Of a stretch of DNA of 64,000 bases, positions 1 through 55,282 are shown in pieces. A program made the position numbers and the translations under genes. This DNA comes from an uncultured bacterium. Its GTDB lineage: Bacteria; UBP14; UBA6098. The notes under the pieces are model-generated. The model saw only the letters and a program-made list of their open reading frames with translations. It was not told where the DNA came from and ran no database searches. Positions within the stretch are counted from its first letter, which is position 1. Each line of letters begins with the position of its first letter. Where the stretch lies: positions 145,328 through 209,327 of the forward strand of contig CAYWOR010000001.1 of the NCBI GenBank assembly GCA_964459995.1, given 5' to 3'.

Positions 1-3000
1 CCGGCGGTGTCGGTGGTTCTGGTATTAACTGGCGCGATTTCGAGATCACCTTCGCCATCGAGCACTGCGATCTCACTTGGGACACCATCCGCGTCAATCA
101 GAACGATCTCAACCGCGGTATCTATGTTGACGAAGAGAACAACGGCTACAACGCCAGGATGTGGATCAATTTCGAGGAATTGGTTCTTTGGCATCCCAGC
201 TGGGCCGGCTTGGTTCCCTTCCGTTCGGGCGATTTCGTCTATGTCCTCCTTACGAGGCTTCTCGACGACCCGGACTACGGTCAGCATTGGGGCGTTGATG
301 AGTGCATGCTCGGCGATTGGACGACAACCCCGCCATACTGGAATCAGATTTACTGGGTTATCGATACGATACCTTCTTATTCCGGCACTTGGGGCATCGC
401 GAACGGTGCCGATGGTAACTACGGAACCCGCAACACTCAGGACAACCATATTCCTGTGATGTGGGAAGTCGTCGGCGTGTGTCCTTACTACACGGAATAC
501 GCGTTCGACACTCTCGGTATCCTCCGTATCGACCTCGAAGGCCCGACCGCTCCGGATACTTTCTACTATCCGCCTCATCAGTGGGTTACTTCCGATAGCT
601 TCCAGATCATTACGTTGAACATCTACGACCAGATCGGTTGTTCGAACTACGATCTCGACGTTCAGGATCTTCTTCGTAACCGCGTTTCCGGCGTTTACTC
701 CGCTAGTGTCGATCAGGAAGCCCGCATCTGCGTTAACCTCAAGGTTCGCGGTTGCGACGGTAGCTGGCATCCCTACTATCACAGCGGCGCGGGATCAATT
801 CCCGACGGTCGTAACTTCTGCGTTGGCGAGCCCGATGCTGTCGGTCTCAACCTGACCAAGAAGTATAACGAGTGGGGCGTCAGAGTAACCTGGGATCCGT
901 ATCGCACGAATACCGATCAGGCGCACTTCCGCCCGGGCGACAAGGTCTGCGTTACCGTTTACGCTTGGGATAATGCTATCACCGACTGTCAGTACGAGCC
1001 CGGCACCGCCGGTCCGGTCAGCGGTTGGGATGATGACAATGATCCTTGGACCTCGCACCGCGATTCTGTCAACTACTCGATTTACTGCTCCGACGGTTCT
1101 CTCGCCCACTTCGTGGACGCCACCGTTCCGAGCCGTAACAGCGGTTATGACAGACTCGACCCGGATTATCTCTACTACGAAGTTTCGCATATCGCCCGTT
1201 GGACTTTCTTCGTTGATTGCCATGCGCCCATCTTCACTGGCGCCGATATGTCGCAGGTTTGTAACGATACCATGTATCTCTACTTCCGCGATGTGTCCGC
1301 CAATGTTCATGGAATGTATTGCGACAACTGGATCGCCAACATCGGCGTTCAGCACACCGAGCTAGTAGAAGGTGCCGACCTGCTTCTCATCTTCACGGAT
1401 ACGATGACCACCCCCGGCGTTACCTACGTCGATACGATCATCTTCCAGAATATGAAGCTCAGCGGCGGCGCTTATCCGCTGAACATTCACGTCGCTTATC
1501 ACGACATTCCGGGCAGAGAGTATCAGTATTACTATGCTGAACTCATCAAAGATCCGGCTGACGATCGCGGCGCTTATGTCCAGCTCTATGGCGACGGTTC
1601 CGAGGCGACCTGCCACTTCTTCCAGCCCTACGACCAAATTCGTTGGGAGCTTTATGCCGGCGACAGCCCGGATGTTCCTTGGTATCCCGCGACTCAGCGC
1701 ACCGTCTCTGGCGGACGCACCTATCGTTGGCACCATGGATTCGATTCCTGGAGCAACCCCGGCACATGGTTCATGAGCTGGCGCTATGGCAGGCATGACT
1801 ACACCGGTATTAATGTCGATACCCTCGACGGCCCGACCTTCTGGGAAGACACCTTCTATAACAACTTTGAGAACCCGAATTGGGCGCTTATCAAGGTTGA
1901 TAGTCTCCAGATCTTCTCTGAGACTTGGTTGTCCAAGGTTGGCTGGTTCAACGATGAGGCTTATCATGCGTTCATGTATCCGCCTCACGTTTACAACTAC
2001 CCGCCGGATCTCAAGGGTGACTACACCAATATCTGGCACGCTTGGATGGGCCGCTACCGCAACACCACCCCGGGTGGAATGACCCCGGTTCTGTTGTGGG
2101 AAGAAGGAAGCCCGAGCCGTATCTCTCCGATGCAGAGCCGCGACCCGTATGTCAACTTCTGGGTTAACGACCTTAACTTCATCGTCGCTGACATCTACAC
2201 CTGCACCGACTCGATCATTTGGGAATGCCTCGTCGGAACACATCCGGACGAAGACACTCTTCCGTTCCGCGTTCCTCGCGTAACGATTGATCTTTACAAT
2301 GCCGGACGTTCGCATGTGTGGACTATCGACGAATTCTACGATTGCCACTGCACGCCTTGCTTCATCAGCTACTATCCTTCGCGCACCGCTTGTGTCGATT
2401 GGGGTAGAATGCATGTCGGTCCGATCGATCAGACCGAACAGTGGCTCTACACGATTCGTAGAATCGATACTCTCGAAACTGACCCCGTCCTCGTTACCGA
2501 TACTATCGTCGGATGGCAGCATCTCGATAGCATTTCGGTCAGGTTGGAGTTCAATGTTCGCGAGCCGAACTACTTCACCGATGCCACCCATTTCACGAAG
2601 TATGTTTTCCGTTGGGATTATGTAGTCGATATGCAGCCGCCGACCGCGATATTCCGCGACCCGGCCGCTACCACCGGCTACGACGAGGTCAACTGTAACC
2701 TCATTCACGACTCGAACCATACTCTCAGGCTGAGACTCGAAAGCATCGTCGACGCTCATGTCGGTTGTGCTCCGGGCACTCTTATGGCCGATGGTTGGTC
2801 TTCCAAGTGGCCGATTCCCGCCGTTGCTCCGTCTTCCGATTGGGTCAAGTTCAAGTATGAAACGACTCCTCCGGTTGCCGCGAACATGGTTTGGAATCCT
2901 GCTACCCACTATCTCTGGTCGAATGAGTCCTTCGTCATCACCAACTGCGCTCTCGAGCTTAATGTTGCTGATACGATGACCATCGGAACCCCGGGTATCC

Positions 3001-6000
3001 AGATTTACCACGGCCTCAATCGCAGTGGCCCCGGATTCCCAGTTCCGTTGCAGACCACTCTCACGAGAGACACGATCTTCGTCGCCGATAGCGTTTTTGC
3101 CGAAGCTATCATTCAGGACCGTTTGGGCAACTGGACTCTCAAGACCAGCCGCAAAATGGCTCTGGACAATGGTCTTCCCGAGGTTAAGGGCTTCGCGCTC
3201 GCTACTCTCGGAATCGATACCGTCGGTTACGACTCTCTCGGAACCCCGATTCTCGGCGATGTGTACATGAACGATTGGGACGGCGCAGTCTTCAAACTGC
3301 CTTGGCTTGTTCCTGATCAGGACAGTCTCGTCGGAATCTACAACTTCGCTCCGGTTTGCACCGTTTATGTGAGGTTGTGGTTCAACGATAATATGGACAT
3401 GCGTGAAGCCGATCACCTTTACGGCCACATCGTTAGGTTCAAGCCGCACGGATGGACCCACTGGTTCCCCGTTCTTCCGCTTGAAACCGTCGGCGGTGGC
3501 CCCACCGGTCTTCGTTTCCCGCTTGCTCAGCAGTATGTCGATTACAAGAATATCGCTGGTGTTATGCCGAGTGCACGCCCGGATGCTTCCAGTGAAACTG
3601 ACCTTTCGCCCGTTATCCCCGGTGATGTCGAGGCTCTCGATGCCGGTTGGAACAGCGACCGCGAATGGGTTGGCTACATGGTTATCGCCGGCGGCGGCGC
3701 CATGGACGGTATCGGAACTCTCCGTGTTCAGGGATTCGATGACAACGCTGGAAACTATATGCTTCCGATCGAATACCCGCTTCGTATAGTAACCGGCGAA
3801 CCGAGATTCAAGATGGTTTACTGGCCGAGAATCGACACTCTGAATAATGCTCATGTCGATCCTTGGAGCGGTTTGCCGGATGACGTTCTCGTTCTCTCCG
3901 GTTGGAGCACTTCGGATCCGGTCCTCGGCGACTCGACCCGTTGCACCTTCTATCAGGATAACGATAGAATGAATCCGATCACCGCTTATTGGGACAACTA
4001 CCTTGCGGAGACCGATTCGGTTCGTTTCAGAGTATTCTGGCACGACACCGCTTGGGTTCCCGGCGCTCCTCTCACCGGTCATACTTTCCACTGGTCTGAG
4101 GACGATATGTGGTCGAGCAACATCTCTGTTTACAGAGACACAGCTTGGGTAGTTATGCCCGTTAGCGAACTCGATCTCTTGCACGAGTATTACACAACTC
4201 TTGGCGGCGCTCCTGTTGCCTACTCGAACAACGAGCTTTATGCAACAATCGTGTTCGAGGCCTTCAGCAGGTTCCGTCCGAGCAACCCCTACATCGCCGA
4301 TACGCTACTCAACGTTCGTATCGACAACCGTAGGCCGGATCCGCAGTTGACGACCCTCACCGGTGGTCAGATGATTCATGGTCAGCACACGATGCTTCCG
4401 TTCGGTTCGACCGATCTGAAGGTTTGCTGGCAGAATAATCAGGTCGAGCAGATCGATAAGATGTCCATCTGGCTCCATAGCCTCATAGATGGCGCTGATT
4501 ACATGCTCTTCCCGGCTGGCGGAACACCCGGACAGAGTTTCGGCGCTGTCGGAACATCTACTCCGCTTTACTACGATCCTGTCAATGGCGTTATCTGCCT
4601 CGACTACAGGAACCCGGCTGGTCTTCCGGCTGGTATGTGGACTCTGAGCTGGAAAGCCTTCGACGGTATTCAGGTCGTCGATACAGCGAGAGGTGGAACA
4701 ATACTGAGATACTGGCAGTATTACCACACCGATTGCGAATTCGACTTCTTCACCGACGATACGCTGACCATTCTTAGGCCTCCGTTCCTCGCTCGCGGCG
4801 ATAATCTCTACGACGCTCTAAGGAGTGTTGCGGACAATTATCCTGCAGTCATTGGCTCGGACGACATCTATCCGTGGTGGAATGTTGGTATGGAAGATAT
4901 CTGGCCGGATTGGCCGACCTTTGGTTGGATCGATACGGCGGCTATCAGAGCGGCTGGCCTGCCCGACCTCTGGAGAGTCGATGCTCTTCACAGAGTCCCG
5001 CAGATGGTTCCGGTTGTTCAGATTACCACCTATAATAACCCGGACTACAGCTCTGGTGTTCCGGATCCGCTCATGCATCCGTATGTCGAATCCGGCGGTT
5101 ACCCGGGCGACAGCCTCTACGTCCTGTTGGAAATGCTCGAGACCGATGTCAACGTTAGATACATCGACCTGAACATCAAGGATTACTGGGGTGGCAACAT
5201 CTCCGGTTCTAACCTCCAGATCAATGTCAGGCTCGATAGCACTCACGTTGTTCACTACGGCGATCGTTCCTTCTGGGTGTATAAGTGGACGGTCGATGAT
5301 CAGGACAACCGTTACGACGGTCTTGTTACGATCACCGCTTCCGAATACACTTACAGCCCGTCCACCAGCACGTGGAACTATTGGGATCACATTGCCTATG
5401 TCTTACTGGATACGGACGATCCGACCTACGAGGTTTCTATGATTAGAACCTCCGACTCTTCGGTTCCGAATATCGCCATCAACCCGATCGACTTCCCGGA
5501 TGAATCAAGAATCTGGGTGGTTAATGCGGACGAGTTCCTCATCAACCTCGATTGGGATCAGACGATATACGATCCGGCGGCTCCGGGTCACCCCGTCTCC
5601 TACCATAACTATGGCAGATACATCTACACTCGTCAGTGGGATCATTGGAGAATTTCCATCGACGGTGCTCCGAATTACGGCACCTACAGCGATGCGAACG
5701 ACCATCTCGAAGCCAGGCTCTGGGACAACGACCTCGATCCGTGGGACATTCATCATCCGTTCTGGCGTCAGCCGGACTACATGAATACCGCGATCACGCC
5801 GTCGTCTTACGATAACGCTTCGCCGATGTGGACCTTCAATGACAAGATCAGATTCTTTGCCGACAACGTCTATGCCTATGCTTGGGATGTTGCTGGAATA
5901 CCTGAAGGCCTCACGGCTCAGGGTGTTGCCTACATCCTCGGTAAGTCTCGCGACGCCGCCGGTAACGTCCTCGACTACGAAGAGGCGAGGATCAGCAAAT

Positions 6001-7445
6001 CGAAGGGCAAGATTGCTCTTATCGACATCGAACGCCCGACCATCGACACCGATCTCGTTATCGCCACCGGCGACAACCTGACCGCCTATGTCGGTGCTAT
6101 CTGGGACAACTTCATTGGCGACAACTTCACCAACGAGCTGGGTGACGGCTACGTTTACGTGATGGTTACCATCGAAGACACGATCCTCGTGGGTCCCTAC
6201 TGGGTGGATCCGAGCGGAGCTATTGCTACCTCCGGTTGGGGCGCTTACGGCCCGACTCCGGGTGACTTCATTGACCTCTGTGTCTATGACCTCGCAGGCA
6301 ACTATGTTTGCGTCGAAGTCGAAGTCGTTCCCGAAGTTCATTGCTGCACCTACAGTCTTTGCACCGATTGGAACCTCATCTCCATCAGCGTCAACCCCGA
6401 AACGCTTACTACGGCTGTCTTCGGTGGCGCTCCGGTTTACAAACTGGTCGGAGGCACCTATGTGCCCTACACCGGTATTCTTGAGCCGGGTGCTGGCTAT
6501 GCGGTTTACCCGCCGAGTGCAATGGAAGTTACTATCTGCGGCGCTCCTGTGACGTCTTTCGACGTTACCCTCAGTGCCGGTTGGAACCTGATTGGCGCTA
6601 CGTGGATGGATGTTCCGTTCACCGCTCCGGAGACCACTCCGGCTGGCGCGATCGACCCGACCGAAACTCGTTGGTATGAGTGCGGAGTTAACTATCACTA
6701 CACTAACGTTCTCGAACACTGCAGAGGCCACCTGGTCATGGTTACCAACCCGGCCGGTTGTGAGCTGAGTGTTCCGGGATCCCGTGGCGGCAAGGTCGTT
6801 TACACCGTCAAAGACGGTCAGTTCGACCCGCTGTTCACCGGCAAATTGGTTAGTGATAACCGCACCCTGACCTTCGGCGTTGCCGACATCGCCACCGCCA
6901 ACTTCGACCGCGGCATCGATCGCTACGCGATTCCGGCGCACGTTGGTCAGAGCGAGCTCGTTCTCGACGGCGGCATGGATGTCGATTACCGCACAACCGA
7001 TAGCAGGATCGAGTGGACCGTTAAGGCCACCGGTAACTACACTGCGACCTTCGAGAAGGAAGGCGACTGGGTCGTCTCTCTCGACGGAGTCCAGCTCGTT
7101 GACGGCGATGTCGTCACGATCACTTCGGGTTCGCACAAGCTGGTTGCCGACCGTGTCTCGGTTCCCGCGAACTTCGCTCTCGGTCAGAACCTTCCGAACC
7201 CGTTCAACGCAGTAACGGCGATCAAGTATGAGCTCCCGACGGACGCTACTGTAACCCTCGAGGTTTACACCGTCCTCGGTCAGAAAGTCGCTACGCTGGT
7301 TAACGGCGATCAGGAAGCCGGTTATCGCACCGTCGTTTGGGACGGAAACGATGACGAGGGTAGAGCTGTTCCGAGCGGAATCTATTTCTACAAGATTTCC
7401 GCCGGCGACTTCTCGGCGACTCGCAAGATGACCCTGATGAAGTAA
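1..7445 (+). CDS. Giant T9SS cargo protein, Trp/Tyr/Asp-rich, unknown function; 5' end lies outside the window (more than 2,450 aa in window)
   Basis: Frame 3 is open from nt 3, so the listed M at 159 is internal and there is no signal peptide at this N-terminus. The C-terminus carries a canonical type-A T9SS sorting domain (LGQNLPNPFNAVTAIKYELP...GIYFYKISAGDFSATRKMTLMK), then a stop and a stem-loop. No recognisable catalytic motifs. The long antisense ORFs (1362..4184, 5505..7460) are treated as shadows. Confidence 0.85.
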   Translation, partial: GGVGGSGINWRDFEITFAIEHCDLTWDTIRVNQNDLNRGIYVDEENNGYNARMWINFEELVLWHPSWAGLVPFRSGDFVYVLLTRLLDDPDYGQHWGVDECMLGDWTTTPPYWNQIYWVIDTIPSYSGTWGIANGADGNYGTRNTQDNHIPVMWEVVGVCPYYTEYAFDTLGILRIDLEGPTAPDTFYYPPHQWVTSDSFQIITLNIYDQIGCSNYDLDVQDLLRNRVSGVYSASVDQEARICVNLKVRGCDGSWHPYYHSGAGSIPDGRNFCVGEPDAVGLNLTKKYNEWGVRVTWDPYRTNTDQAHFRPGDKVCVTVYAWDNAITDCQYEPGTAGPVSGWDDDNDPWTSHRDSVNYSIYCSDGSLAHFVDATVPSRNSGYDRLDPDYLYYEVSHIARWTFFVDCHAPIFTGADMSQVCNDTMYLYFRDVSANVHGMYCDNWIANIGVQHTELVEGADLLLIFTDTMTTPGVTYVDTIIFQNMKLSGGAYPLNIHVAYHDIPGREYQYYYAELIKDPADDRGAYVQLYGDGSEATCHFFQPYDQIRWELYAGDSPDVPWYPATQRTVSGGRTYRWHHGFDSWSNPGTWFMSWRYGRHDYTGINVDTLDGPTFWEDTFYNNFENPNWALIKVDSLQIFSETWLSKVGWFNDEAYHAFMYPPHVYNYPPDLKGDYTNIWHAWMGRYRNTTPGGMTPVLLWEEGSPSRISPMQSRDPYVNFWVNDLNFIVADIYTCTDSIIWECLVGTHPDEDTLPFRVPRVTIDLYNAGRSHVWTIDEFYDCHCTPCFISYYPSRTACVDWGRMHVGPIDQTEQWLYTIRRIDTLETDPVLVTDTIVGWQHLDSISVRLEFNVREPNYFTDATHFTKYVFRWDYVVDMQPPTAIFRDPAATTGYDEVNCNLIHDSNHTLRLRLESIVDAHVGCAPGTLMADGWSSKWPIPAVAPSSDWVKFKYETTPPVAANMVWNPATHYLWSNESFVITNCALELNVADTMTIGTPGIQIYHGLNRSGPGFPVPLQTTLTRDTIFVADSVFAEAIIQDRLGNWTLKTSRKMALDNGLPEVKGFALATLGIDTVGYDSLGTPILGDVYMNDWDGAVFKLPWLVPDQDSLVGIYNFAPVCTVYVRLWFNDNMDMREADHLYGHIVRFKPHGWTHWFPVLPLETVGGGPTGLRFPLAQQYVDYKNIAGVMPSARPDASSETDLSPVIPGDVEALDAGWNSDREWVGYMVIAGGGAMDGIGTLRVQGFDDNAGNYMLPIEYPLRIVTGEPRFKMVYWPRIDTLNNAHVDPWSGLPDDVLVLSGWSTSDPVLGDSTRCTFYQDNDRMNPITAYWDNYLAETDSVRFRVFWHDTAWVPGAPLTGHTFHWSEDDMWSSNISVYRDTAWVVMPVSELDLLHEYYTTLGGAPVAYSNNELYATIVFEAFSRFRPSNPYIADTLLNVRIDNRRPDPQLTTLTGGQMIHGQHTMLPFGSTDLKVCWQNNQVEQIDKMSIWLHSLIDGADYMLFPAGGTPGQSFGAVGTSTPLYYDPVNGVICLDYRNPAGLPAGMWTLSWKAFDGIQVVDTARGGTILRYWQYYHTDCEFDFFTDDTLTILRPPFLARGDNLYDALRSVADNYPAVIGSDDIYPWWNVGMEDIWPDWPTFGWIDTAAIRAAGLPDLWRVDALHRVPQMVPVVQITTYNNPDYSSGVPDPLMHPYVESGGYPGDSLYVLLEMLETDVNVRYIDLNIKDYWGGNISGSNLQINVRLDSTHVVHYGDRSFWVYKWTVDDQDNRYDGLVTITASEYTYSPSTSTWNYWDHIAYVLLDTDDPTYEVSMIRTSDSSVPNIAINPIDFPDESRIWVVNADEFLINLDWDQTIYDPAAPGHPVSYHNYGRYIYTRQWDHWRISIDGAPNYGTYSDANDHLEARLWDNDLDPWDIHHPFWRQPDYMNTAITPSSYDNASPMWTFNDKIRFFADNVYAYAWDVAGIPEGLTAQGVAYILGKSRDAAGNVLDYEEARISKSKGKIALIDIERPTIDTDLVIATGDNLTAYVGAIWDNFIGDNFTNELGDGYVYVMVTIEDTILVGPYWVDPSGAIATSGWGAYGPTPGDFIDLCVYDLAGNYVCVEVEVVPEVHCCTYSLCTDWNLISISVNPETLTTAVFGGAPVYKLVGGTYVPYTGILEPGAGYAVYPPSAMEVTICGAPVTSFDVTLSAGWNLIGATWMDVPFTAPETTPAGAIDPTETRWYECGVNYHYTNVLEHCRGHLVMVTNPAGCELSVPGSRGGKVVYTVKDGQFDPLFTGKLVSDNRTLTFGVADIATANFDRGIDRYAIPAHVGQSELVLDGGMDVDYRTTDSRIEWTVKATGNYTATFEKEGDWVVSLDGVQLVDGDVVTITSGSHKLVADRVSVPANFALGQNLPNPFNAVTAIKYELPTDATVTLEVYTVLGQKVATLVNGDQEAGYRTVVWDGNDDEGRAVPSGIYFYKISAGDFSATRKMTLMK

Positions 7446-7463
7446 ACAGCCCAACTTCACAAG

Positions 7464-7597: not shown

Positions 7598-10500
7598 ATG
7601 TCCAGAGGCAAAATTACCTTAGTAGTAGCTCTTGCGCTTGCAAGTATGGTTCTTGCACAGAGTTGGAGTTTTACTTTTCAGGTCGAGCCCGTTCCGGGGC
7701 AGACACACGACCTTGAAATAGCGATGACTGCGGGAGCAACCGCAGGATATGACGCGTTCTTAGACGTCCCTTATTTTACGCCCCCCGATGGAAGGGGTGT
7801 TTTCTTCCCTCTTAACGATCCATTAAATCCCGCTTATACCAAACTCCAGAAGGATGTCCGCGGTATCGCACTCGGATCATATACCTATTGGATCGCAATG
7901 GACGAGGGATATTGGGGTCTCGATGACCGTATGGTTCGTTGGGATATCGACAATCTTCCCGATCCTGATATCTCCGGCAATCTTTGGATTGCTCCTATAG
8001 TTTATGGGACTGACCCTGCGACTCTCGATGAAGCTCTTTGGATTCCCATGAATACGGTCGAAGAATTCGGTTTCGGACCCACTCAGGAAGCCGCATTCAG
8101 GTTTATGCCTTCTGCAATGGTTGATACCATTGCTCCTTATGTTACCGGTTTCGATCCGGTTCCGGGAGAGGCTGGCGTATCCACAGCTAAGAATGTAAGA
8201 TTCGATGTCAAAGACGCCAACAGAGGCGTTGACCCCGCCACAATCGATGTTTGGGTTACCGTTGGCGGCGGAACTCCGGCTCATCTCGGACCTTCCGACA
8301 TGATTCTCGATCCCATCGTTGGCGGATATCGTGTAACGATTCCCCCGGTTGGCGGTGCTTGGCCTGAATCCACGATTATTAACTACACAGTTAATGCCTG
8401 CGATTTGGCGAGTCCTGCTAATTGCATGGATGTCGATACCTCAGTATCGTTCTTCACCCGTGTGATTCCGCCGGACATGTTCCCGCCCTATTTCGAAACC
8501 GCCTATCCGGCCAATGGTGCTACCGATGTCGATGTTACTTCCTGCGTAAGAATCGTCATTAAAGATTCTGAGAGCGGTGTCGATAGTAGCACAATAATCT
8601 TCCAGCTCAATGGAACAGCGATCCCGCATTCCGACCTTAACATCACTGAGCTTGGAGTCGGTTCGGATTGGTATCGCGTCGAATATTGCCCAACTTCCGA
8701 CCTCAACTATGGCGCTATCTATAATGTTAATGTTTACGCCGAGGATTTCTGGGGCAACGATGCTTCGATTACTTGGTCTTTCGTTACTGAAGAGGCGGAT
8801 TCGCTTCCCGAATTCGTTTATAATCTTCAAGCAATTTCGATTAGTGGAACCGATACCGCGAGAACCAATCTCTACATCGGCCTCGATAATCTTGGAACAG
8901 ACGGCTACGACGTCGGTCTCGATGTCCCGCAGTTCTTGTTCCCGGGTGCGCCGAGAGGTTATTTCCCGCTCATGGATCCGAGCCATCCCAGCGTTCCGGC
9001 CCTTTCGAGGGACATTCGCTCGACTTCCCATGGAATCAAAACATGGACAGTCGATATGTATAGCCCTGTTGGAACTTTGAAACTTACATGGGATAGACTC
9101 CTTCTTCCGCCGATCGGCATGTTCAGCTTCGCTGTTGTCGATAGCGGTTCCACACCGAGCGCTTGGACCTCGATGTCCACCTATGGTGAGGTAAGCTTTA
9201 CCTCCTCCCAGCAGGTTCTCATTCGCTTCCTCCCGACCTTGGTCGATCCTAATCCTCCTGTCGTAACAAATGTTTCGATGGAAGGATCCGGCCCGGGCGG
9301 AGTTGGCTATGATCCAGCAACACCGCTTTGCTTCAGCGTTGTGGATTATGAGTCCGGCGTCGATATAAGCTCTGTGGCAATTTCTATCGATTATGTCGAT
9401 ATCGACCTTGCGGAATTCGCGACCACTCCTCTGTCGAATGGTTACCGTTTCTGCTATACCCCGTCTCCGATGTGGTCGCCGAACACGACCTACAGAGTCG
9501 AGGTTCAGGCCGCGGACAATGCCATTCCGGCTAACGAAATCGACCCGCCCTATGTTTGGAACTTCTCGACCGGCCCGGCTGGTTGCGCTCCGTTGTTCGA
9601 GCTTCCCCTTACTTTCACATGGGGTGCTGGCGCGGATGAAAACGAGACGATCATTTTCGGAACCCACGAGGGTGCTTCCCCGGGTTATGATGCCGGTCTG
9701 GATCAGATTCAGCCTCCGCCCATCACCGCCGCCGGCTTCTTCTTCACTTGCGGCGATGCGGCTCCGGCAGACAAACTGATCAAGGACCTTCGCAATCCAT
9801 GCGACCGTCCGAACATCTGGCAGGCTTCCAAGAGAAATCTGCTTACCTCGCCGAATGTTACTGTTACATGGCCGACTTCTCCGGTTTTCGCGGATACTTC
9901 GTGGCATATCTACTACAAAGTTCTCGGATTGGGTGTTACCCCGCCGACCGCTGTTGACAGCACTTGGACCCGCATGAATGTTGGCGATGAAATCGTTTAC
10001 AATGCCAACTCGAATTATCTCTATGTCGGTCTCGGCTATATCGGAACCACAATCGAAGTCTTCAATATCGAAGGCGATGTTGCGATTGCCGGCGCTCCCG
10101 ATAACAGCGGAATCCGTGTTTACCTCAACGGCGGCACTTTCCGCACGACCAATGCGGCTGGCGAATACTCCTTCGCGAACATCCCGCTTGGAACTTATAA
10201 CTTAACATTCTGGGACCCGGCTGGCGAATACTGCGCGCATCCTGATATGGATTCGATCGTTGTGGTTACCGGCACTGTTCCCGATGCCACTATCGATGTT
10301 CCTACCTATCATATGCTCCCCTGCGGAAGCAGAAGAGTTTATGGTGTCGGTTCGGTTGCTGGAACGCCTACTCAGTGGATCAACGTGAAACTCACGAATC
10401 TCGGCGATCTTTCCGAATCCACAATTCCGACCAACGCTTCGGGAGCTTACCAGTTCCTCGGCGTTGTTCCGGGTGATTACATGCTGACCGCTTCCTATTC

Positions 10501-12364
10501 TGGATATCGCACTTGGGACACGACCTTCACGGTCGGTCTTACCGATGTCAACATAAACTTCAACCTGACCGAAACGACGGTTTTGGTTACAGGAATGGCA
10601 AGACTTAACAGCGTTCCTTCGCCTGGTATTACCATTAACGGATCAGCGGTTGCAACGCCGACGACGTCAATCGCCGACGGTTCTTACTCTGTGACAGCAA
10701 ATATCGGCGGTGGAAACATCTGTGCAAGCTATCCCGGTTACGAGACAGTTTGTCAGTTTGTTACCGTTCCTGAAACAGGTTTGACCGGTGTTGATTTCAA
10801 TCTTCTACCGTTGCCGGTGGATGTTATTGTCTCGGTCGATCTCGGTTGCGAAACCGTCAACATGTCGGGTGCTTCCGTTACGATGTCCGGTGTTGGAACA
10901 GAAATTACCCCCGCCAGCGGCAATGTCAGATTCGATGATGTCGCCCACGGATGGTATAATTTCACCGTTTCCGCTCCGTATCATGCAACGGTTGTTGTCG
11001 AAAGCGTCTATGTCAGCGCTGACACCACGATTAACGTTGCTCTCTGCTGTCTCGACGCCGTCGAAGATTTCGACGCTGATCCGGACAGTGTTGCACGCCC
11101 GACTGCCGATCCGCTGACCATTGCGCTCAGCTGGACCGAAGCCGGAACTTCCTGCTGTGATCCGGATTCTTATCTGGTTTACAGGTCGTTGGCACCGTTC
11201 ATTAGCACCACTGCCCCCGGCGTTACGAGAGTCGCTTCGGTTCCCTTCGGAACCACGACCTATGTCGATGCGACAGTTGCCGATGGCGTTCGTTACTACT
11301 ACGATATCGTCGTAGTCTATGGTTGCCCGAGCAATTATTCGAGACTTGCCGGCAATGTTAACGCGGCAAGCGCTTATACACCCGACCCGGCCGATTATCT
11401 GGTTATCGACTGGGACAACGGTGCGACCCCAACCAACGGCGGCACGATGGGTGTCGGCGAATGGTGGGTTAATATGCTCGGTTCCAGTGCGCTCGGTCTT
11501 TCGGCTGTTGTCAGAACAACCGACGATTCGCATAGCGATCCGCTTGCGGGCTATAACCTCAATGACTATGACTTGGTCGTTCTCGCGCTCGGTATCAACG
11601 ATGCGGACAACACCGTTCTTCCTACTGCGGCTGTTGCCAAGCTCGAAGCTTACAGAGCGATTAGCGGCAAAAAGATGATCATCGAAGGTCCCGATTTCGG
11701 TGCCGATTACAACGCAACCACTTTCTTCGGCAACCTCGGCCTTGCCTTCGTTCATGACGGCGCGGCTGACTTCAACGTCGATTGGTTCTATGCCACTCCG
11801 ACTTTGACGAATGCATCCTTCCCGATCATCTTCGATTACAACGACAGTAGTTCTGCTGACCATTTCGTCGATATCCTTAATTCTCCGGGTGTCTTGACAA
11901 CGAATGTCGCCTGGGATCAGGATTCGGTCTATAGGACATTCTTCTACAATGGCCCTTGCCAGACCATCATCTCGACGATTTATCTCGGCGGTATCGTTAA
12001 TTCGAGCTATCCGTATGTGCAGTCGCGTGCGGCTTCCGGTTATCTCTGGAAGCTCGGAATCGCCAACACCGGCATTTATCAGGTCGAAACGAAGCTCCCG
12101 AGCGATTTCGCGCTCGCGGGCAACTATCCGAACCCCTTCAACCCGGTTACCACGATCGAATTCCAGCTCCCGAGAGATTCTCATGTGGACGTTTCGATCT
12201 ATGACATCACCGGCAAGAGGGTTGAGACTCTGGTCGATGAAAGGCTCGAAGGCGGCGTTTACAAGGTCGCTTGGAACGCCAACAACATGCCCAGCGGTGT
12301 TTACTTCGCTCGCATGACCGCAGGTGAGTTCTCCGCAACTCACAAGGTTATGCTCGTCAAGTAA
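7598..12364 (+). CDS. Giant secreted T9SS cargo protein (1588 aa): N-terminal repeated GYD/GLD modules, 4 carboxypeptidase-regulatory-like beta-sandwich domains, Fn3, alpha/beta pre-CTD module, T9SS CTD
   Basis: SD AAAGGGG 7 nt upstream of the ATG. Signal peptide MSRGKITLVVALALASMVLAQS. CarbopepD_reg-like repeats (e.g. ...GEYSFANIPLGTYNLTF...). C-terminal LAGNYPNPFNPVTTIEFQLP...GVYFARMTAGEFSATHKVMLVK. A strong terminator follows. Confidence 0.9.
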   Translation: MSRGKITLVVALALASMVLAQSWSFTFQVEPVPGQTHDLEIAMTAGATAGYDAFLDVPYFTPPDGRGVFFPLNDPLNPAYTKLQKDVRGIALGSYTYWIAMDEGYWGLDDRMVRWDIDNLPDPDISGNLWIAPIVYGTDPATLDEALWIPMNTVEEFGFGPTQEAAFRFMPSAMVDTIAPYVTGFDPVPGEAGVSTAKNVRFDVKDANRGVDPATIDVWVTVGGGTPAHLGPSDMILDPIVGGYRVTIPPVGGAWPESTIINYTVNACDLASPANCMDVDTSVSFFTRVIPPDMFPPYFETAYPANGATDVDVTSCVRIVIKDSESGVDSSTIIFQLNGTAIPHSDLNITELGVGSDWYRVEYCPTSDLNYGAIYNVNVYAEDFWGNDASITWSFVTEEADSLPEFVYNLQAISISGTDTARTNLYIGLDNLGTDGYDVGLDVPQFLFPGAPRGYFPLMDPSHPSVPALSRDIRSTSHGIKTWTVDMYSPVGTLKLTWDRLLLPPIGMFSFAVVDSGSTPSAWTSMSTYGEVSFTSSQQVLIRFLPTLVDPNPPVVTNVSMEGSGPGGVGYDPATPLCFSVVDYESGVDISSVAISIDYVDIDLAEFATTPLSNGYRFCYTPSPMWSPNTTYRVEVQAADNAIPANEIDPPYVWNFSTGPAGCAPLFELPLTFTWGAGADENETIIFGTHEGASPGYDAGLDQIQPPPITAAGFFFTCGDAAPADKLIKDLRNPCDRPNIWQASKRNLLTSPNVTVTWPTSPVFADTSWHIYYKVLGLGVTPPTAVDSTWTRMNVGDEIVYNANSNYLYVGLGYIGTTIEVFNIEGDVAIAGAPDNSGIRVYLNGGTFRTTNAAGEYSFANIPLGTYNLTFWDPAGEYCAHPDMDSIVVVTGTVPDATIDVPTYHMLPCGSRRVYGVGSVAGTPTQWINVKLTNLGDLSESTIPTNASGAYQFLGVVPGDYMLTASYSGYRTWDTTFTVGLTDVNINFNLTETTVLVTGMARLNSVPSPGITINGSAVATPTTSIADGSYSVTANIGGGNICASYPGYETVCQFVTVPETGLTGVDFNLLPLPVDVIVSVDLGCETVNMSGASVTMSGVGTEITPASGNVRFDDVAHGWYNFTVSAPYHATVVVESVYVSADTTINVALCCLDAVEDFDADPDSVARPTADPLTIALSWTEAGTSCCDPDSYLVYRSLAPFISTTAPGVTRVASVPFGTTTYVDATVADGVRYYYDIVVVYGCPSNYSRLAGNVNAASAYTPDPADYLVIDWDNGATPTNGGTMGVGEWWVNMLGSSALGLSAVVRTTDDSHSDPLAGYNLNDYDLVVLALGINDADNTVLPTAAVAKLEAYRAISGKKMIIEGPDFGADYNATTFFGNLGLAFVHDGAADFNVDWFYATPTLTNASFPIIFDYNDSSSADHFVDILNSPGVLTTNVAWDQDSVYRTFFYNGPCQTIISTIYLGGIVNSSYPYVQSRAASGYLWKLGIANTGIYQVETKLPSDFALAGNYPNPFNPVTTIEFQLPRDSHVDVSIYDITGKRVETLVDERLEGGVYKVAWNANNMPSGVYFARMTAGEFSATHKVMLVK

Positions 12365-12382: not shown

Positions 12383-12420
12383 AAAAAAACCCTCCGTTTT
12401 ACGGAGGGTTTTTTGTTTTG
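12383..12420 (+). terminator. Rho-independent terminator (AAAAAAACCCTCCGTtttaCGGAGGGTTTTTTGTTTTG)
   Basis: 8-bp GC-rich stem, 4-nt loop and a T-tract, directly after the stop of 7598..12364. Confidence 0.9.
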
Positions 12421-16494: not shown

Positions 16495-17463
16495 CTATTT
16501 CATATAAACGACATTTTGAGTCTTTACGATTCCGCCGCTGACTGCCTTTACCAGATATGTTCCGGTCGGAAGGTCGTTCGATGGTGTGAACCGGACGAGA
16601 TGATAGCCCGTGAAAGCCGCCGTTTCCGCGATTTTCTCGATCATTCTGCCATTGACATCATAGATCGCTATCTCGATGGGGTTTCCATCGCCGGCAATGA
16701 GTATCGACATAGCCGAATTGAAAGGGTTCGGGAAACATCTCAGGCCGAAATCGCTCGGAACAACGACTCTCTCGGCAACATTTCCGGCATCGAGGTTGAA
16801 ATTGATAACCATATTTGCGCCACCGCCAACCACGAAAATCCCGTCGAGTTCATTGACATAGTGTGCATAAGGCTCTTGAAGGAAGCCGGTTGTATCGCAC
16901 ATGTTATTGCCGTTGAGATCGGACCAAACCAAAGCCGATTTCGCTCCCGAGGGGACGCTGTCAAGCTCGAAATCGAGCTCCTCAATTATCCAAGTGCCAT
17001 CGAGAACTGGGCCGCCGCCGAGTAACATGGGATATTGATCGAATATCCTCATCTTCAGGGAATCCGGGCTACCGCTATATATGATTGTGCCCTCCACGCC
17101 GCCATAGCGCGCGAGTTCGACATCGATACCGGAGATTGTTCCGCCGGAAATGCGGAAGGGGTTTCCGGGATACTGACCCGCAGGATCGCCGCTGGCAGGC
17201 GGAAGTCCCGAAGGGATGAGCGCCATAACATTGTAATCGTAGCCATCGAGGATGAACGGATCATCGAAGATGTAGTTGTAGTCCGGCGGAAATGCAAGCG
17301 TGTAGAAGAACGAGGTATCCATTAATGTCGTGAAATCGTGGAAAACGAAGACATAAGCCGTGTCCGTCGGTGTTCCGGGGACATTTAAAGTCCCCATTAT
17401 CATCCCCGCGAAAAGCCCGCTGGTCATAAGTGCGAGGATGATGATGATGTTGATTGTTCTCAT
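16495..17463 (-). CDS. Secreted T9SS cargo protein, 323 aa, unknown function
   Basis: The track ORF (to 17709) is trimmed to an ATG with an AAGGAG RBS that gives the signal peptide MRTINIIIILALMTSGLFAG. The longer form would overlap the upstream gene. C-terminal T9SS CTD (LRCFPNPFNSAMSILIAG...YLVKAVSGGIVKTQNVVYMK). Confidence 0.8.
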   Translation of the reverse strand: MRTINIIIILALMTSGLFAGMIMGTLNVPGTPTDTAYVFVFHDFTTLMDTSFFYTLAFPPDYNYIFDDPFILDGYDYNVMALIPSGLPPASGDPAGQYPGNPFRISGGTISGIDVELARYGGVEGTIIYSGSPDSLKMRIFDQYPMLLGGGPVLDGTWIIEELDFELDSVPSGAKSALVWSDLNGNNMCDTTGFLQEPYAHYVNELDGIFVVGGGANMVINFNLDAGNVAERVVVPSDFGLRCFPNPFNSAMSILIAGDGNPIEIAIYDVNGRMIEKIAETAAFTGYHLVRFTPSNDLPTGTYLVKAVSGGIVKTQNVVYMK

Positions 17464-17479
17464 ATTTTTTCTCCTTTCG

Positions 17480-19345
17480 TTATTCTCTAAGTTGGAAAAG
17501 CCCCTCTTCATCGAAGAGAAGCCAATAAGCCTCTCCGGGGAAGAATCTATCGCGAATTCTATAGCTTCCTGATGTTGTGGAACCTGCACGATCGTAATAA
17601 TAGAAAATTCTTCTTCCGATTGCGGTTTCGGGGATTTCGGAGATTGCAGTCGTGTCCGCACCGCCGTATTTTGAAAGCCCGCCGACGAATTCCCATCCGG
17701 GGCCGGCATTCATAAGTGTATACATATGAATCGGAATTCCTGTAACGGAATAGCTCCGTTCGTTGAGGACGAAAACGAAATAGCCCTTGCCCGGGGTCAG
17801 AATATCGGGGGCTATATAGTTGAGTAGGTCGGAATCCCACTCATAAACATACTCGGCACCCGGAAATGCGACATGCGGCGAAAGGCCGTCGTGGGGGATA
17901 ACCGGAAGACTGACAGCATTCCAGCCGGAATAAAGATGATAATATGCCGAGCTGTCGGCATGTTGAACGAGTGCGCGAATGTAATAATTCGTATCGGGCA
18001 CTTCGGTCCACGAGCCGCCGGGGGGAAGGTCCCAACCGTGGCCATACATCGACTGCCTTAGCGAGATTCCAAGCGAATGGTCAAGCTCGATTCCGAGATA
18101 AAAATCGCCGTCGAGAATAATCCGCTCCATTGCGACATTTATGCGCGCCCAGCCGGTGGAATTCAGCAGATAATCCCCGTAGCCGAGGATTTCGTCGCCA
18201 GGTTGACCGCGGTCGTCCAAGTAAATCTTCGGCGAACCGAACCCTGGATTGCTGATGTGGTAATCTATTGCGATGAGCCTACAACGTGTATCGACACGGA
18301 ATTTATTCGCGATAACCGCGCCGGGGTAAGACACCGCGGCCGACGGTGGAATTCCGTCGTCATAAAGCAACGTGTCGTAGATTAGAGTTCCGACGGCGTT
18401 ATATGCTGTTCCTGCGGCTGTATCCGATGGCGGACTGAGGAATGCACCGCTGTCGTATTCCGCGCGGACAGTGTAATAATAAGTGTTTCCAGGGGTAACG
18501 GCATAATCGTCGTAGGTAGTTTCGCTTGCGGGAACAATCGCGAGGGGCGAGAAAATCCCATGGTAGGTGCTGGCGCGATAGATTCTATAGGAATCCGGAC
18601 GTATCATCGAGGTCGCTTCGGTGGGACGCATACTCGGTTCCGGCGATGGATGATAGGAGCGCGAGAAGATTTCCGAAAAACCCGGCTCGTGAGGGATTTC
18701 ATAAACAGTTTTACCCGGTGAAATATACACAGTAGCTCGAGTGCGAGATTCCAAATACAGAACCTCCAGTCGGACGAGAAGATCGCCGGAAAGCTGACGC
18801 CAGCCATACATATAGTGATATTGATAAGACCTCGGCGAGCCGGGCGTTATCGAAGAATCCATTAGAATATACATCTGCGGAAGCGCATCGCCCTTGGAAA
18901 TTCGGACAAACAGCTCGTCATAAACGACGAGACCGGCGTCGCTAACATCGACATTGTTCCAGCCGACTGTAACGGGGGTGTATCTTGTCGGCAGAAGCAC
19001 ATTGCTGTAATCCGGCAGGCCGACATGGTTCACGCCATACATATTGATATTGACCGCACGTGAACCGAGCATAAGGAAAAGGTTGAACTGCACCGAAAGG
19101 ATGCTACACGGCTCGGCGGGGGAGAATTTCACGGCGCACATTCCGCTGTCGAGGTCTATCTCGCGCGAGCCTATGCCGTTATCGTATTTGATTGTGTCCG
19201 AGATGATTATCGGCGGGGGAGGCGTCCATTCGAGTCCGATATGGTCGGTGAAGAACGAATAGGCGACAAGCCCTGAAGGCGCCGGCCATTGTGCCATAAG
19301 GCCAACTGCCGCTAAAAGCATTACGGCGAGACAAATTCTTTTCAT
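17480..19345 (-). CDS. Secreted protein with an Fn3-like domain, 621 aa, unknown function (no T9SS CTD)
   Basis: Signal peptide MKRICLAVMLLAAVGLMAQ and an AGGAG RBS. An Fn3-like segment (YRIYRASTYHGIFSPLAIVPASETTYDDYAVTPGNTYYYTVRA). It starts 7 nt after the dapB stop. Confidence 0.75.
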   Translation of the reverse strand: MKRICLAVMLLAAVGLMAQWPAPSGLVAYSFFTDHIGLEWTPPPPIIISDTIKYDNGIGSREIDLDSGMCAVKFSPAEPCSILSVQFNLFLMLGSRAVNINMYGVNHVGLPDYSNVLLPTRYTPVTVGWNNVDVSDAGLVVYDELFVRISKGDALPQMYILMDSSITPGSPRSYQYHYMYGWRQLSGDLLVRLEVLYLESRTRATVYISPGKTVYEIPHEPGFSEIFSRSYHPSPEPSMRPTEATSMIRPDSYRIYRASTYHGIFSPLAIVPASETTYDDYAVTPGNTYYYTVRAEYDSGAFLSPPSDTAAGTAYNAVGTLIYDTLLYDDGIPPSAAVSYPGAVIANKFRVDTRCRLIAIDYHISNPGFGSPKIYLDDRGQPGDEILGYGDYLLNSTGWARINVAMERIILDGDFYLGIELDHSLGISLRQSMYGHGWDLPPGGSWTEVPDTNYYIRALVQHADSSAYYHLYSGWNAVSLPVIPHDGLSPHVAFPGAEYVYEWDSDLLNYIAPDILTPGKGYFVFVLNERSYSVTGIPIHMYTLMNAGPGWEFVGGLSKYGGADTTAISEIPETAIGRRIFYYYDRAGSTTSGSYRIRDRFFPGEAYWLLFDEEGLFQLRE

Positions 19346-39390: not shown

Positions 39391-39454
39391 CCTCGCTCCT
39401 TTTCTGAGTATCTAATTTATCAATTTAACTTCGATCATTTAACCAACAAGAATA

Positions 39455-39489
39455 AATCGAAAAATTCAGAAACGCAAGTGATTCTTGCG
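39455..39489 (-). terminator. Intra-operon stem-loop/attenuator on the minus strand (CGCAAGaatcaCTTGCGTTTCTGAATTTTTCG) between the 378-aa and 931-aa genes
   Basis: 6-bp stem followed by a U-rich tract in the 100-nt gap, and a possible internal promoter (TTGTTG...TAAATT) before the RBS of the 931-aa gene. Confidence 0.45.
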
Positions 39490-39491
39490 GT

Positions 39492-40628
39492 TTAGAAATT
39501 TTCGATTGTTTCGACATTTGCGCGAGGGACGATTGCCCTTGCGCCTTCGTCGAATTCGACCTCGAGCACTCTGGCTTTCGATTCGCTCTCGAGGACTCGA
39601 AGCTCCGGCGGCAGAGCTGTAACTTTGCCTATTTTGCCGAAATAGGGGTATCTAATTACCCTAACTTGGCTTCCGATGCTGAGGCCGATTGTCTCTTCCG
39701 TGCCCTCTGGAGTAAACCCTGCGGGAGGTTCGGATTGGGCTATCACAATTTCCGGGCGGATAACACCGGCTCGTATTTGAGTTGCGCCGTTGACGCTTGC
39801 GCCTTTGCCCTCGAATTTTTTTAGTATCTCGAAAGTTCTCTGCGCCATAGGTATTTCGCCGAAACCTTCGGTTGTAACTATTGCCGTGTAAACGTCTTCG
39901 GAGCCGGTGATTGCGACGCCGATGTCATAGCCGAGAATCTGGCGAAGGTCGCGGTCATCGACGCCTCCGGCGACGATGGCCTTCACGCCTATGCTGATGG
40001 CTTTTCTATATGCGCCGGAGGTGATTTTTCTGCCGCAGACGATTACTTTTCCGCGGTGTTCTTCTTTTACCATTTCCTCGGTGAGATCGCCGGTGTTGTC
40101 TTTGGTCAGCACGATAATTTCGCCGAATCTTTCGCCGCCGATTCCGAAAATTCCCTGAATGAATGTCGCATGAGTTGTAATAATGGCGCCCTCATCGGGG
40201 ATAATTTCGGTAACTTCGCCCTCGACATAGGCGGTGGCTTCGATTGGGATAGGCAAAGCGCGGAAAAGAACGTTGCCCGTAACAGGGCTGATAGATTCGA
40301 TTGAACCCTCGAAGGGGGCTTTTACACTTGTTTTGAAGAGTCCCGTGCTGAAAATCCCCTTATTTCTCGCGACAATTTGCCCATCGGTGATTTTGTCGCC
40401 CTCTTTGACCAACATGAAGTATTTTAGGTCTTCGGCATCGCAACCGAGGAGGTTGGCGATGTTCATTTGTTCGACATTTCCCGGAAGATCGGTTTTCGCG
40501 ACAACATCGGTCGGTTTGACCTTGTCGCCGACTTTGGCAACAATCTCGCCCTTCAACGGGAGAATGCGTTTCTTCATAATTTTAGTATATTCCGTGACTT
40601 TAAGACCCGGTGTATATATGTGTCCCAT
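39492..40628 (-). CDS. Conserved soluble protein partnered with the GlmL-like ATPase, unknown function (378 aa)
   Basis: GGAGAG RBS. It starts 9 nt after the GlmL-like stop. Gly-rich motifs (GIFGIGGERFGEIIV; GVKAIVAGGVDDRDL; TEGFGEIPMA; NGATQIRAGVIRP). No signal peptide and no TM. Confidence 0.7.
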   Translation of the reverse strand: MGHIYTPGLKVTEYTKIMKKRILPLKGEIVAKVGDKVKPTDVVAKTDLPGNVEQMNIANLLGCDAEDLKYFMLVKEGDKITDGQIVARNKGIFSTGLFKTSVKAPFEGSIESISPVTGNVLFRALPIPIEATAYVEGEVTEIIPDEGAIITTHATFIQGIFGIGGERFGEIIVLTKDNTGDLTEEMVKEEHRGKVIVCGRKITSGAYRKAISIGVKAIVAGGVDDRDLRQILGYDIGVAITGSEDVYTAIVTTEGFGEIPMAQRTFEILKKFEGKGASVNGATQIRAGVIRPEIVIAQSEPPAGFTPEGTEETIGLSIGSQVRVIRYPYFGKIGKVTALPPELRVLESESKARVLEVEFDEGARAIVPRANVETIENF

Positions 40629-40637
40629 TTCGCTCTC

Positions 40638-50970: not shown

Positions 50971-51086
50971 AGCGGTTTTAATAAAAAAATGATGTGTCTT
51001 TTGTCAAGTTAAAACCTAACAGTCGAAAAGTTTAGTCAAAATTAGAGCCGGCCCTAAGACCGGCTCCAAATGAATAGCCCTATACC

Positions 51087-55245: not shown

Positions 55246-55282
55246 TTCAAAAAAGGGAGCCTTCGTTGGCAAAGGCTCCCTG
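55246..55282 (-). terminator. Rho-independent terminator on the minus strand (GGGAGCCTTtgccaacgAAGGCTCCCTTTTTTGAATG) after 55291..58947
   Basis: 9-bp stem and a T-tract, read on the minus strand, between the two tandem giant genes. Confidence 0.85.

Follow-up and report, generated by a model that had tools for sequence, protein, structure and literature searches.

A 64,000-nucleotide stretch of DNA from an uncultured bacterium of the UBP14/UBA6098 lineage (contig CAYWOR010000001.1, positions 145,328 to 209,327; below, the window) encodes four giant proteins, D, A, B and C, each of which ends with a type-A C-terminal domain (CTD) of a type IX secretion system (T9SS). A, B and C are true paralogs built from the same modules, and D, which has only the CTD in common with them, is a conserved neighbor of A in related genomes. 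With moderate confidence, we read D, A, B and C as a conserved four-member set of acidic proteins (pI 4.1-4.5, 132-350 kDa each) that would be exported by the Sec pathway and then by T9SS and would form a coat or fibril layer, S-layer-like or adhesin-like, at the cell surface. The four genes occupy the following positions of the window:

3..7445, + strand: gene D, 3′ part (the frame is open to base 3; the 5′ end lies beyond the window edge)
7598..12364, + strand: gene A (1588 aa, 171 kDa, pI 4.1)
51087..55196, - strand: gene B (1369 aa, 152 kDa, pI 4.3)
55291..58947, - strand: gene C (1218 aa, 132 kDa, pI 4.3)

The open reading frames of A, B and C, in which the original prediction, made from the letters of the window, had seen a family of giant T9SS cargo proteins, are all present.

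Paralogy and domain order of A, B and C

In BLASTP comparisons, the pairs A/B, A/C and B/C align over most of their length with 24-32% identity (best segments, 100-120 bits), and D shares with them only the CTD, i.e., the last ~95 residues. Individual modules were compared with the SEG filter on and with E-values scaled to a 1e9-residue database. For the alpha/beta module of ~230-250 aa that is located directly upstream of the CTD, this comparison gave E-values of 2.7e-12 (A-B) and 2.7e-5 (B-C), and for pairs of the N-terminal module (N-module), values from 1e-9 to 1e-4. Since the matches are significant after filtering and scaling, the possibility that the blocks shared by the three proteins are low-complexity coincidences is refuted, and the homology of A, B and C, proposed originally from the look of the sequences, holds. 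The aligned blocks are indeed homologous, but the motifs by which they had been described are not common to all three proteins: a literal IDWD.G is confined to A, and [IC]EG.D[FA]G is present in A and B but missing from C.

The domains follow one another in A, B and C in the same order: signal peptide, N-module(s) with Big_5, CarboxypepD_reg repeats, Fn3-like segment, alpha/beta module and type-A CTD. What had been called N-terminal modules is a repeated unit consisting of a ~150-aa beta-sandwich (the N-module proper) and an immunoglobulin (Ig)-like Big_5 domain. A and B have three copies each and C has one; Big_5 is lacking after the last N-module of A and of B and present after all the others. 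The signal peptides, judged directly from the sequence, combine a basic N-terminus with a hydrophobic core and an A-x-A-like site, and end with LAQSW, LAEAW and LAQEW in A, B and C, respectively. The modules were located with hidden Markov models (HMMs), Pfam and structure prediction as follows:

7655..8119, + strand: A, N-module copy 1 (aa 20-174; HMM 2.7e-34; uncurated beta-sandwich)
8123..8797, + strand: A, two Big_5 Ig-like domains (~aa 176-400; PF13205, 47.1 bits, two stretches)
8804..9247, + strand: A, N-module copy 2 (aa 403-550; HMM 2.4e-44; the copy used for modelling)
9254..9577, + strand: A, Big_5 (~aa 553-660; PF13205, E 1.1e-4)
9587..10033, + strand: A, N-module copy 3 (aa 664-812; HMM 2.2e-28)
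10067..11044, + strand: A, four CarboxypepD_reg-like repeats (aa 824-1149; Pfam and iterated HMM)
11090..11362, + strand: A, Fn3-like segment (~aa 1165-1255; three-paralog profile against PDB 3mpc; A alone has no Pfam match)
11381..12070, + strand: A, alpha/beta module (aa 1262-1491; AlphaFold2 and Foldseek)
12122..12361, + strand: A, type-A T9SS CTD (aa 1509-1588; TIGR04183, 41.2 bits; PF18962, 42.2 bits)
53157..55133, - strand: B, N-terminal array with N-modules at aa 22-160, 272-420 and 530-680 (HMM 7.7e-40, 7.7e-44 and 3.9e-36)
52449..53147, - strand: B, three CarboxypepD_reg-like repeats (aa 684-916; Pfam and iterated HMM)
51417..52145, - strand: B, alpha/beta module (aa 1018-1260; HMM 2.9e-72)
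51090..51344, - strand: B, type-A T9SS CTD (aa 1285-1369; TIGR04183, 28.0 bits)
58411..58890, - strand: C, N-module (aa 20-179; HMM 1.8e-32)
57382..58071, - strand: C, three CarboxypepD_reg-like repeats (aa 293-522; Pfam and iterated HMM)
55603..56370, - strand: C, alpha/beta module (aa 860-1115; HMM 8.8e-56)
55294..55548, - strand: C, type-A T9SS CTD (aa 1134-1218; TIGR04183, 39.2 bits)

The type-A CTD model TIGR04183 (cut-off 23 bits) assigns all four proteins to its family, with 41.2 bits for A, 28.0 for B, 39.2 for C and 36.8 for D; with PF18962 (cut-off 27 bits), A and C are above the threshold, and B (19.8) and D (18.5) are below it. CarboxypepD_reg (PF13620) is likewise assigned in each paralog (79, 51.3 and 82.2 bits for A, B and C against a cut-off of 32.3), and the iterated HMM counts four repeats in A and three each in B and C. 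SdrD_B and SpaA matches from Pfam overlap this stalk-type repeat region. Big_5 (PF13205, cut-off 23.6) scores 47.1 bits in A and 31.2 in B, where the domains following the first two N-modules have E-values of 0.012 and 2.3e-7; C, at 19.2 bits, is below the cut-off.

Thus, of the domain order proposed originally, the signal peptide, the repeats, the alpha/beta module and the CTD stand in all three paralogs. The Fn3 domain is less certain: PF00041 gave 19.1 bits in B against a cut-off of 25 and no match in A and C, and a profile of the three paralogs matched the Fn3-like PDB chain 3mpc with an E-value of 9.5e-4 and neogenin FN3 with 0.03-0.3. In C alone, an extra beta-rich segment of ~230 aa (~56578..57270, - strand, aa ~560-790), which has no Pfam match, seemingly splits the Fn3-like domain.

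The AlphaFold2 model of the N-module (copy 2 of A) is all-beta, with 10 strands and a pLDDT of 95.6, and no significant fold match to it was found in PDB or BFVD. A word-indexed homology search with N-module profiles returned only one and two marginal matches. For the N-module and the alpha/beta module alike, PDB sequence profiles gave nothing below E 0.5, Pfam at permissive thresholds gave no family for the isolated modules, and no NCBIfam model covers either of them in runs on whole proteins only. The ~150-aa N-module and the alpha/beta module are, therefore, two domain families without a curated family among those searched.

Fold and conservation of the alpha/beta module

The alpha/beta module of A was modelled with AlphaFold2 from a diverse alignment of 35 members, with a pLDDT of 94.2. 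A Foldseek search of PDB with this model produced 78 matches at E <= 1e-3, all of them class-I glutamine-amidotransferase (GATase1)-like, the best with an E-value of 5.6e-7; the Foldseek probability is 1.0. The matches, which include PabA/ADC synthase, ThuA-like 4e5v, IFT52 GIFT, OST48 (6s7t_G) and glycoside-hydrolase accessory domains, have TM scores of 0.5-0.6 (TMq 0.60 for IFT52 GIFT, 5fmr) at 8-16% identity. On this model, the module is confidently predicted to adopt the class-I glutamine-amidotransferase-like fold.

No Pfam model reached its gathering score with the alpha/beta module, and the sub-threshold matches of family members are solely to families of the GATase1-like fold type. They comprise IFT52_GIFT (PF23355; 16.7-16.9 bits against 27.2, E 0.0035), DUF4159 (12.5-15.0 bits against 25.9, E 0.018), ThuA and ABC_transp_aux (PF09822), for which there are weak E-values only (0.0022 and 0.13), and DUF2194. 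In PDB profile searches, a GH42M chain was weakly matched (E 0.75). A word-indexed homology search with the module of A retrieved only one fragment, 79% identical.

The 35 aligned sequences are 21-58% identical to the module of A and share nine near-invariant residues, D13, E105, G106, G130, N135, Y156, D163, D167 and R188, within the signature IDxD ... EGxD ... DG..GNV ... Y ... AD..VDE ... R. There is no conserved Cys, Ser or His in this alignment, and the region of the nucleophile elbow reads I-E-G-P-D. Since neither Cys nor His is conserved, the Cys-His-Glu triad is absent and the module is not an amidotransferase. In the predicted secondary structure, D13 ends beta-1 and E105 ends beta-4. 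Because the fold normally has its active site at the ends of these strands, the conserved residues D, E, N, Y, D, D and R probably line an acidic pocket at this place.

The module is also present outside the family. A 328-aa secreted protein of Acidobacteriota (P0141) contains it together with a type-I dockerin; in two T9SS proteins of Cloacimonadota (P0061 and P0074), it is located at the N-terminus and accompanied by HYDIN/DUF1573 and NIDO domains; and P0056, which also carries it, is named a subtilisin-family protease by one source.

Relatives of the module that lack catalysis are found in several roles. In GH42 beta-galactosidases, a GATase1-like relative acts in oligomerisation (trimerisation). 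GIFT domains have been suggested to bind sugars or to act as scaffolds (PMC7226087). Since the non-catalytic GATase1-like relatives are scaffolds, oligomerisation domains and proposed sugar binders, we favor a ligand-binding or oligomerising base over an enzyme: judging from the model, the module is probably of the non-catalytic ThuA/GIFT/GH42-accessory type and would bind a glycan or a cation, or oligomerise, by way of the acidic pocket.

An enzymatic reading of the same data is unlikely in our estimate, yet it has points in its favor. The proteins would then be surface-bound or secreted enzymes, e.g., glycan or peptide hydrolases that degrade an insoluble polymer; the alpha/beta module would be a new GATase1-like catalytic domain that uses Glu/Asp at the former nucleophile elbow, with the N-modules and Ig-like repeats binding the substrate or acting as spacers. 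One is the near-invariance of nine residues across such divergent sequences; another is that E105-G106 is located, by secondary structure and fold match, at the end of the strand that bears the nucleophile in GATases. The occurrence of the module alone, beside a dockerin and in a named protease points the same way, fusions of dockerins with enzymes being typical of catalytic or carbohydrate-binding modules, and many T9SS cargos are hydrolases (PMC10202324). However, with Cys, Ser and His unconserved, the module would be devoid of any known catalytic solution of its superfamily, and the Pfam, NCBIfam and PDB sequence searches gave no hydrolase family. The structural neighbors with the highest query coverage (IFT52 GIFT, OST48, ThuA-like and glycoside-hydrolase accessory domains) are non-catalytic. 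In addition, the presence of three conserved paralogs and D in a fixed cluster and the strictly basal position of the module by the CTD speak more for a structural role.

Relatives, gene order and gene D

An exhaustive HMMER search of 1.84 billion representatives, with the three alpha/beta modules as the query, retrieved 173 proteins at E <= 1e-3, of which 58 had E <= 1e-10. The homologs were re-annotated with HMMs for the N-module, the alpha/beta module and the CTD. The architectures of A, B and C recur among these proteins: A-type proteins of ~1540-1590 aa with three N-modules, B-type proteins of ~1360-1510 aa with three and C-type proteins of ~1140-1270 aa with one. The named members of the family are all annotated as “hypothetical protein” or “carboxypeptidase-like regulatory domain-containing protein”.

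Each of the three paralogs has orthologs of its own, to which it is closer than to its paralogs in the same genome. Identity is 44% between A and P0006, 54% between B and P0004 and 52% between C and P0005, compared to ~27% among A, B and C. In a neighbor-joining tree of alpha/beta modules, the A-, B- and C-types from many metagenomes separate from each other. It follows that the duplications predate the divergence of the Zixibacteria/UBP14-like metagenome-assembled genomes (MAGs) that carry them. Going by these sequence comparisons, the duplications appear to be old rather than a recent private expansion of this genome, and the lineage-specific expansion suggested by the original prediction is not upheld.

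A profile of full-length A-type orthologs was searched against GTDB species representatives and found 14 loci with 26-55% identity to A. They belong to MAGs of Candidatus Zixiibacteriota/candidate division Zixibacteria, to the bacterium UBP14_UBA6098 (UBA6098 has the NCBI lineage “unclassified Bacteria candidate phyla”) and to others from Guaymas and elsewhere. Contigs of up to ~510 kb from JGI metagenome 3300033169 and SRR10872663 also contain the sequence of the window itself.

The genes D, A, C-like and B are arranged in this order as one block at two loci (L009 and L013); D, A and C are found together at L012, and C followed by B at L015 and L016. Since the D-A-C-B block is present in the more distant relatives, the genome of the window carries a split version of it, in which 43 kb separate D-A from C-B. 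At L018, from a closer relative, C and B are followed by Pth and the H+-PPase, the same order as in the window. In the Zixibacteria MAG D1M01_7 (L008, 8491..21233), D is followed by three consecutive A-type genes, i.e., the A subfamily is tandemly amplified in some relatives.

D had been regarded as a giant cargo protein unrelated to the other three. Outside the CTD, its sequence is indeed unlike theirs, but it is not a bystander: in all of the seven loci that extend far enough upstream (L006-L009 and L011-L013), the A-type gene is directly preceded by a D-type gene on its own strand. The D orthologs are 33-68% identical, and where both proteins were compared (L006, L007 and L011), identity is 59-68% for D versus 45-48% for A. 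Full-length D (L001, 450..9848) consists of 3132 aa (~350 kDa), with a signal peptide after M26, and is rich in Trp (3.9%) and Tyr (5.8%). Searches of Pfam, NCBIfam and PDB sequences with D matched the CTD only, and no other domain or internal repeat was detected. A partial match of 28 residues and 9.9 bits to the N-module in front of the CTD of D was rejected as a module copy and is a hint at most. On the source contig, the gene just upstream of D (L001, 1..32) is Wzi-like (PF14052), i.e., belongs to the family of a capsule-anchoring outer-membrane lectin; a link to attachment of surface polysaccharide is possible.

Proposed export and surface role, and comparison with known systems

The homology, domain make-up, folds, conservation and gene order of the set are shown by the analyses above; what follows about how the proteins are exported, anchored and oriented, how abundant they are, and whether they bind ligands and assemble with one another is inferred. 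The signal peptide would carry each protein to the periplasm, from where the type-A CTD would guide it through the outer membrane. If the proteins behave like cargo of Porphyromonas and Tannerella, the CTD would next be removed by a PorU-like sortase and the newly formed C-terminus tethered to a surface glycolipid (PMC10202324, PMC7468200), the C-terminus being the point at which T9SS CTD cargo is held (PMC7468200, PMC10202324). Since the alpha/beta module directly precedes the CTD in 56 family proteins, with a median linker of 28 aa, it would form the base nearest the membrane. The stalk would consist of the Fn3-like segment and the CarboxypepD_reg repeats, and the distal, outward end of the units of N-module plus Big_5, the N-modules probably being the binding heads. 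The four proteins would jointly give rise to an abundant coat, or a layer of fibrils, on the cell surface. The conserved linker motif G-I-x-N-T-G was considered as a mark of PorU cleavage and rejected, as it is present in only 9 of the 56 family members.

Codon usage was compared among 24 genes of the window. The effective number of codons is 41.9 for D, 45.5 for A, 47.2 for C and 47.8 for B, versus 47.3-61 in the 20 other genes, so that codon bias in the window is strongest in the four giant genes as a set. TTA, CTA and TCA codons occur 2.5-7.4 times per 1000 in D, A and C and 13.9 times in B; the genes of the pyrophosphatase and the TonB-dependent receptor have ~20, and that of the tRNA synthetase has 9.7. 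The bias suggests translational selection and high expression, with which it is compatible, and is no proof of either. We also counted the O-glycosylation sequon of Bacteroidota, D[ST][AILVMT], among D[ST] dipeptides. It accounts for 41 of 55 dipeptides in D (background 0.37, p 1e-8) and 19 of 20 in C (p 1e-6); in B, the excess is weak (12/19), and A (9/18) shows no enrichment, as compared to 15/33 in housekeeping controls. All seven D orthologs, as well as several C-type proteins, are likewise enriched in the sequon, and the enrichment may reflect glycosylation or merely the composition of beta-strands.

Hairpins resembling intrinsic terminators follow three of the giant genes:

12384..12414, + strand: after A (14-bp stem, then a T run)
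55254..55281, - strand: between C and B (12-bp stem with 7 GC pairs, then a T run)
51042..51069, - strand: after B (12-bp stem)

No terminator-like hairpin was found in the interval between D and A, unlike the strong ones after A, C and B. The hairpin between C and B also bears on the start of B. The program-made open reading frame of B extends to 55385 (that of D is 159..7445, + strand). The ATG at 55196 is preceded by a Shine-Dalgarno-like site, AAGGGGGAGAT, and the signal peptide begins there; since, in addition, the terminator of C falls inside the longer frame, 55196, as given in the original prediction, and not 55385 is the correct start.

A surface or envelope role would fit the stalk-type Ig-like domains, the acidic pI, the strongest codon bias and the individual strong terminators. 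The function as adhesins or S-layer components, and as a major determinant of the cell surface, which the original prediction had attached to these proteins, is unproven.

Several points weigh against a T9SS-exported surface layer. None of the T9SS machinery genes (SprA/Sov, PorV, PorU and GldK/L/M/N) was found among the proteins of the 64-kb window, T9SS is described as restricted to Bacteroidota (PMC10202324), and our search of the literature found nothing linking Zixibacteria to T9SS. The sole machinery candidate seen in a relative (Zod_Metabat.733; L017, 8539..12675, - strand) is a 1379-aa protein with a C25 propeptide, peptidase C25, choice-of-anchor J and a type-A CTD; it is gingipain-like or PorU-like, but its 53 bits with the PorU model are far below the cut-off of 420. 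NCBIfam and Pfam searches revealed no similarity of the four proteins to a known S-layer or adhesin family except for generic Ig-like repeats. The near-invariant polar residues at the GATase active-site position could equally mean catalysis, and both the codon bias and the sequon enrichment could also be explained by amino-acid usage or beta-strand composition. Finally, judging from the strong terminators that follow C and A, the genes seem to be transcribed as separate units, and operon structure thus gives no argument for co-assembly.

A bolder version of the surface-coat reading is one that we consider improbable. According to it, D, A, C and B would be subunits of an undescribed, lineage-defining surface apparatus of Zixibacteria/UBP14-like bacteria that depends on a non-Bacteroidota T9SS; the alpha/beta module would represent a new extracellular GATase1-like class (for anchoring or lattice formation, dependent on a glycan or cation, or a carboxylate-based enzyme), and the N-module a new beta-sandwich binding fold.

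Quite improbable, in our view, is a true two-dimensional crystalline S-layer like that of TfsA/TfsB, in which the alpha/beta modules would provide lattice contacts in the manner of the GH42 trimerisation fold and the proteins would be heavily O-glycosylated. Such a layer would agree with giant acidic CTD proteins encoded in tandem, with the codon bias and with the sequon enrichment in D, C and all seven D orthologs; there is the precedent of Tannerella (PMC4175972) and a weak profile hint to the GH42M domain. On the other hand, homology to TfsA/TfsB or to S-layer families is limited to generic repeats, A of this window has no sequon enrichment (9/18), and an O-glycosylation system in this lineage is an assumption. 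Elongated architectures with many repeats are, moreover, more usual in fibrillar proteins than in proteins that form lattices. The present data do not separate S-layer proteins from fibrillar ones.

That chance resemblance of low-complexity or generic beta-rich stretches explains the similarity, or that the open reading frames are not genes, has next to no chance of being true: antisense frames of up to 940 aa overlap the giant genes and could cast some doubt on the coding strand, but they are shadows of codon usage, the SEG-filtered and scaled E-values go down to 1e-12, the 173 homologs have the same architecture, and the models of both modules have pLDDT values of 94-96. These antisense frames (488-940 aa; 1362..4184, 5505..7460, 8441..9907 and 10805..12343, all on the - strand) are located within D and A and were rejected as genes; they are codon-aligned and are open because TTA, CTA and TCA codons are nearly absent there.

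A fifth, small type-A CTD protein (404 aa) is encoded at 16495..17709 (- strand), beside a 621-aa protein without a family match (17480..19345, - strand). Downstream of the A ortholog at L006 and L007, there are open reading frames of like size in the same order, one of them for a ~330-aa protein with a CTD. Unrelated to the giant genes is a cluster at 36595..42509 (- strand) that encodes a DUF6754 protein of 931 aa, a barrel-sandwich protein similar to RnfC_N/NqrA_N and a “MutL protein” (PF13941). The remaining genes of the window are ordinary chromosomal ones (DapB, H+-pyrophosphatase, peptidyl-tRNA hydrolase, aminoacyl-tRNA synthetase, TonB-dependent receptor and Lnt), and scans of the window for rRNA, tRNA and Rfam families gave zero matches.

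The four proteins of the proposed surface coat amount to ~800 kDa of polypeptide and, with the strongest codon bias in the window, are a candidate for the main surface structure of Zixibacteria and their relatives. To our knowledge, Zixibacteria and their relatives are uncultured and their cell envelope is undescribed. The type-A CTDs add to the evidence that sorting signals of this kind are in use far beyond Bacteroidota, in conflict with the description in reviews. The alpha/beta family extends to Cloacimonadota and Acidobacteriota, and the domain HMMs could improve the annotation of metagenomes from similar samples.

Among known systems, the alpha/beta module resembles the GIFT/ThuA-like/GH42-accessory domains (GldG, IFT52, OST48/Wbp1 and 4e5v) in having the same predicted fold without the catalytic triad (TMq 0.5-0.6). 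It differs from them in sequence (identity 8-16%, no Pfam cut-off reached) and in its own signature, and here it is predicted to be extracellular and is fused to a T9SS CTD. The S-layer protein Kustd1514 of Kuenenia stuttgartiensis (NF052345, S_layer_anammox) partially matches the CarboxypepD_reg repeats of C (E 2.9e-11), but the score, 41.5 bits against a cut-off of 1400, comes from generic beta-sandwich repeats only. The fibrillar and gliding adhesins that T9SS exports, e.g., RemA (type-A CTD) and SprB (type-B CTD) of Flavobacterium johnsoniae, are, like the proteins described here, giant surface proteins in which many repeats, among them Ig-like domains of the stalk type, are combined with a T9SS CTD (PMC10202324). 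Homology to them does not go beyond generic repeats, gliding genes are not seen in the neighborhood, and the set described here has a fixed basal alpha/beta module and comprises three paralogs and D.

The closest parallel in kind is provided by TfsA and TfsB of Tannerella forsythia, large T9SS CTD glycoproteins encoded by adjacent genes, which make up its S-layer and whose surface layer is lost in T9SS mutants (PMC4175972). Common features are very large secreted proteins, adjacent genes, the type-A CTD, Ig-like repeats and predicted surface attachment after CTD removal, and the sequon is enriched in D and C (PMC4175972, PMC7468200). In contrast to TfsA/TfsB, to which no homology was detected, there are four proteins here instead of two, and they come from a non-Bacteroidota organism. 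Judging from our searches and to the best of our knowledge, the two domain families of this set are absent from TfsA/TfsB. A specialist would be surprised only if the alpha/beta module or the four-protein assembly showed an unexpected activity. Giant surface proteins of the T9SS type are a known kind, to which the window adds a new conserved four-gene arrangement and two uncurated domain families outside Bacteroidota.

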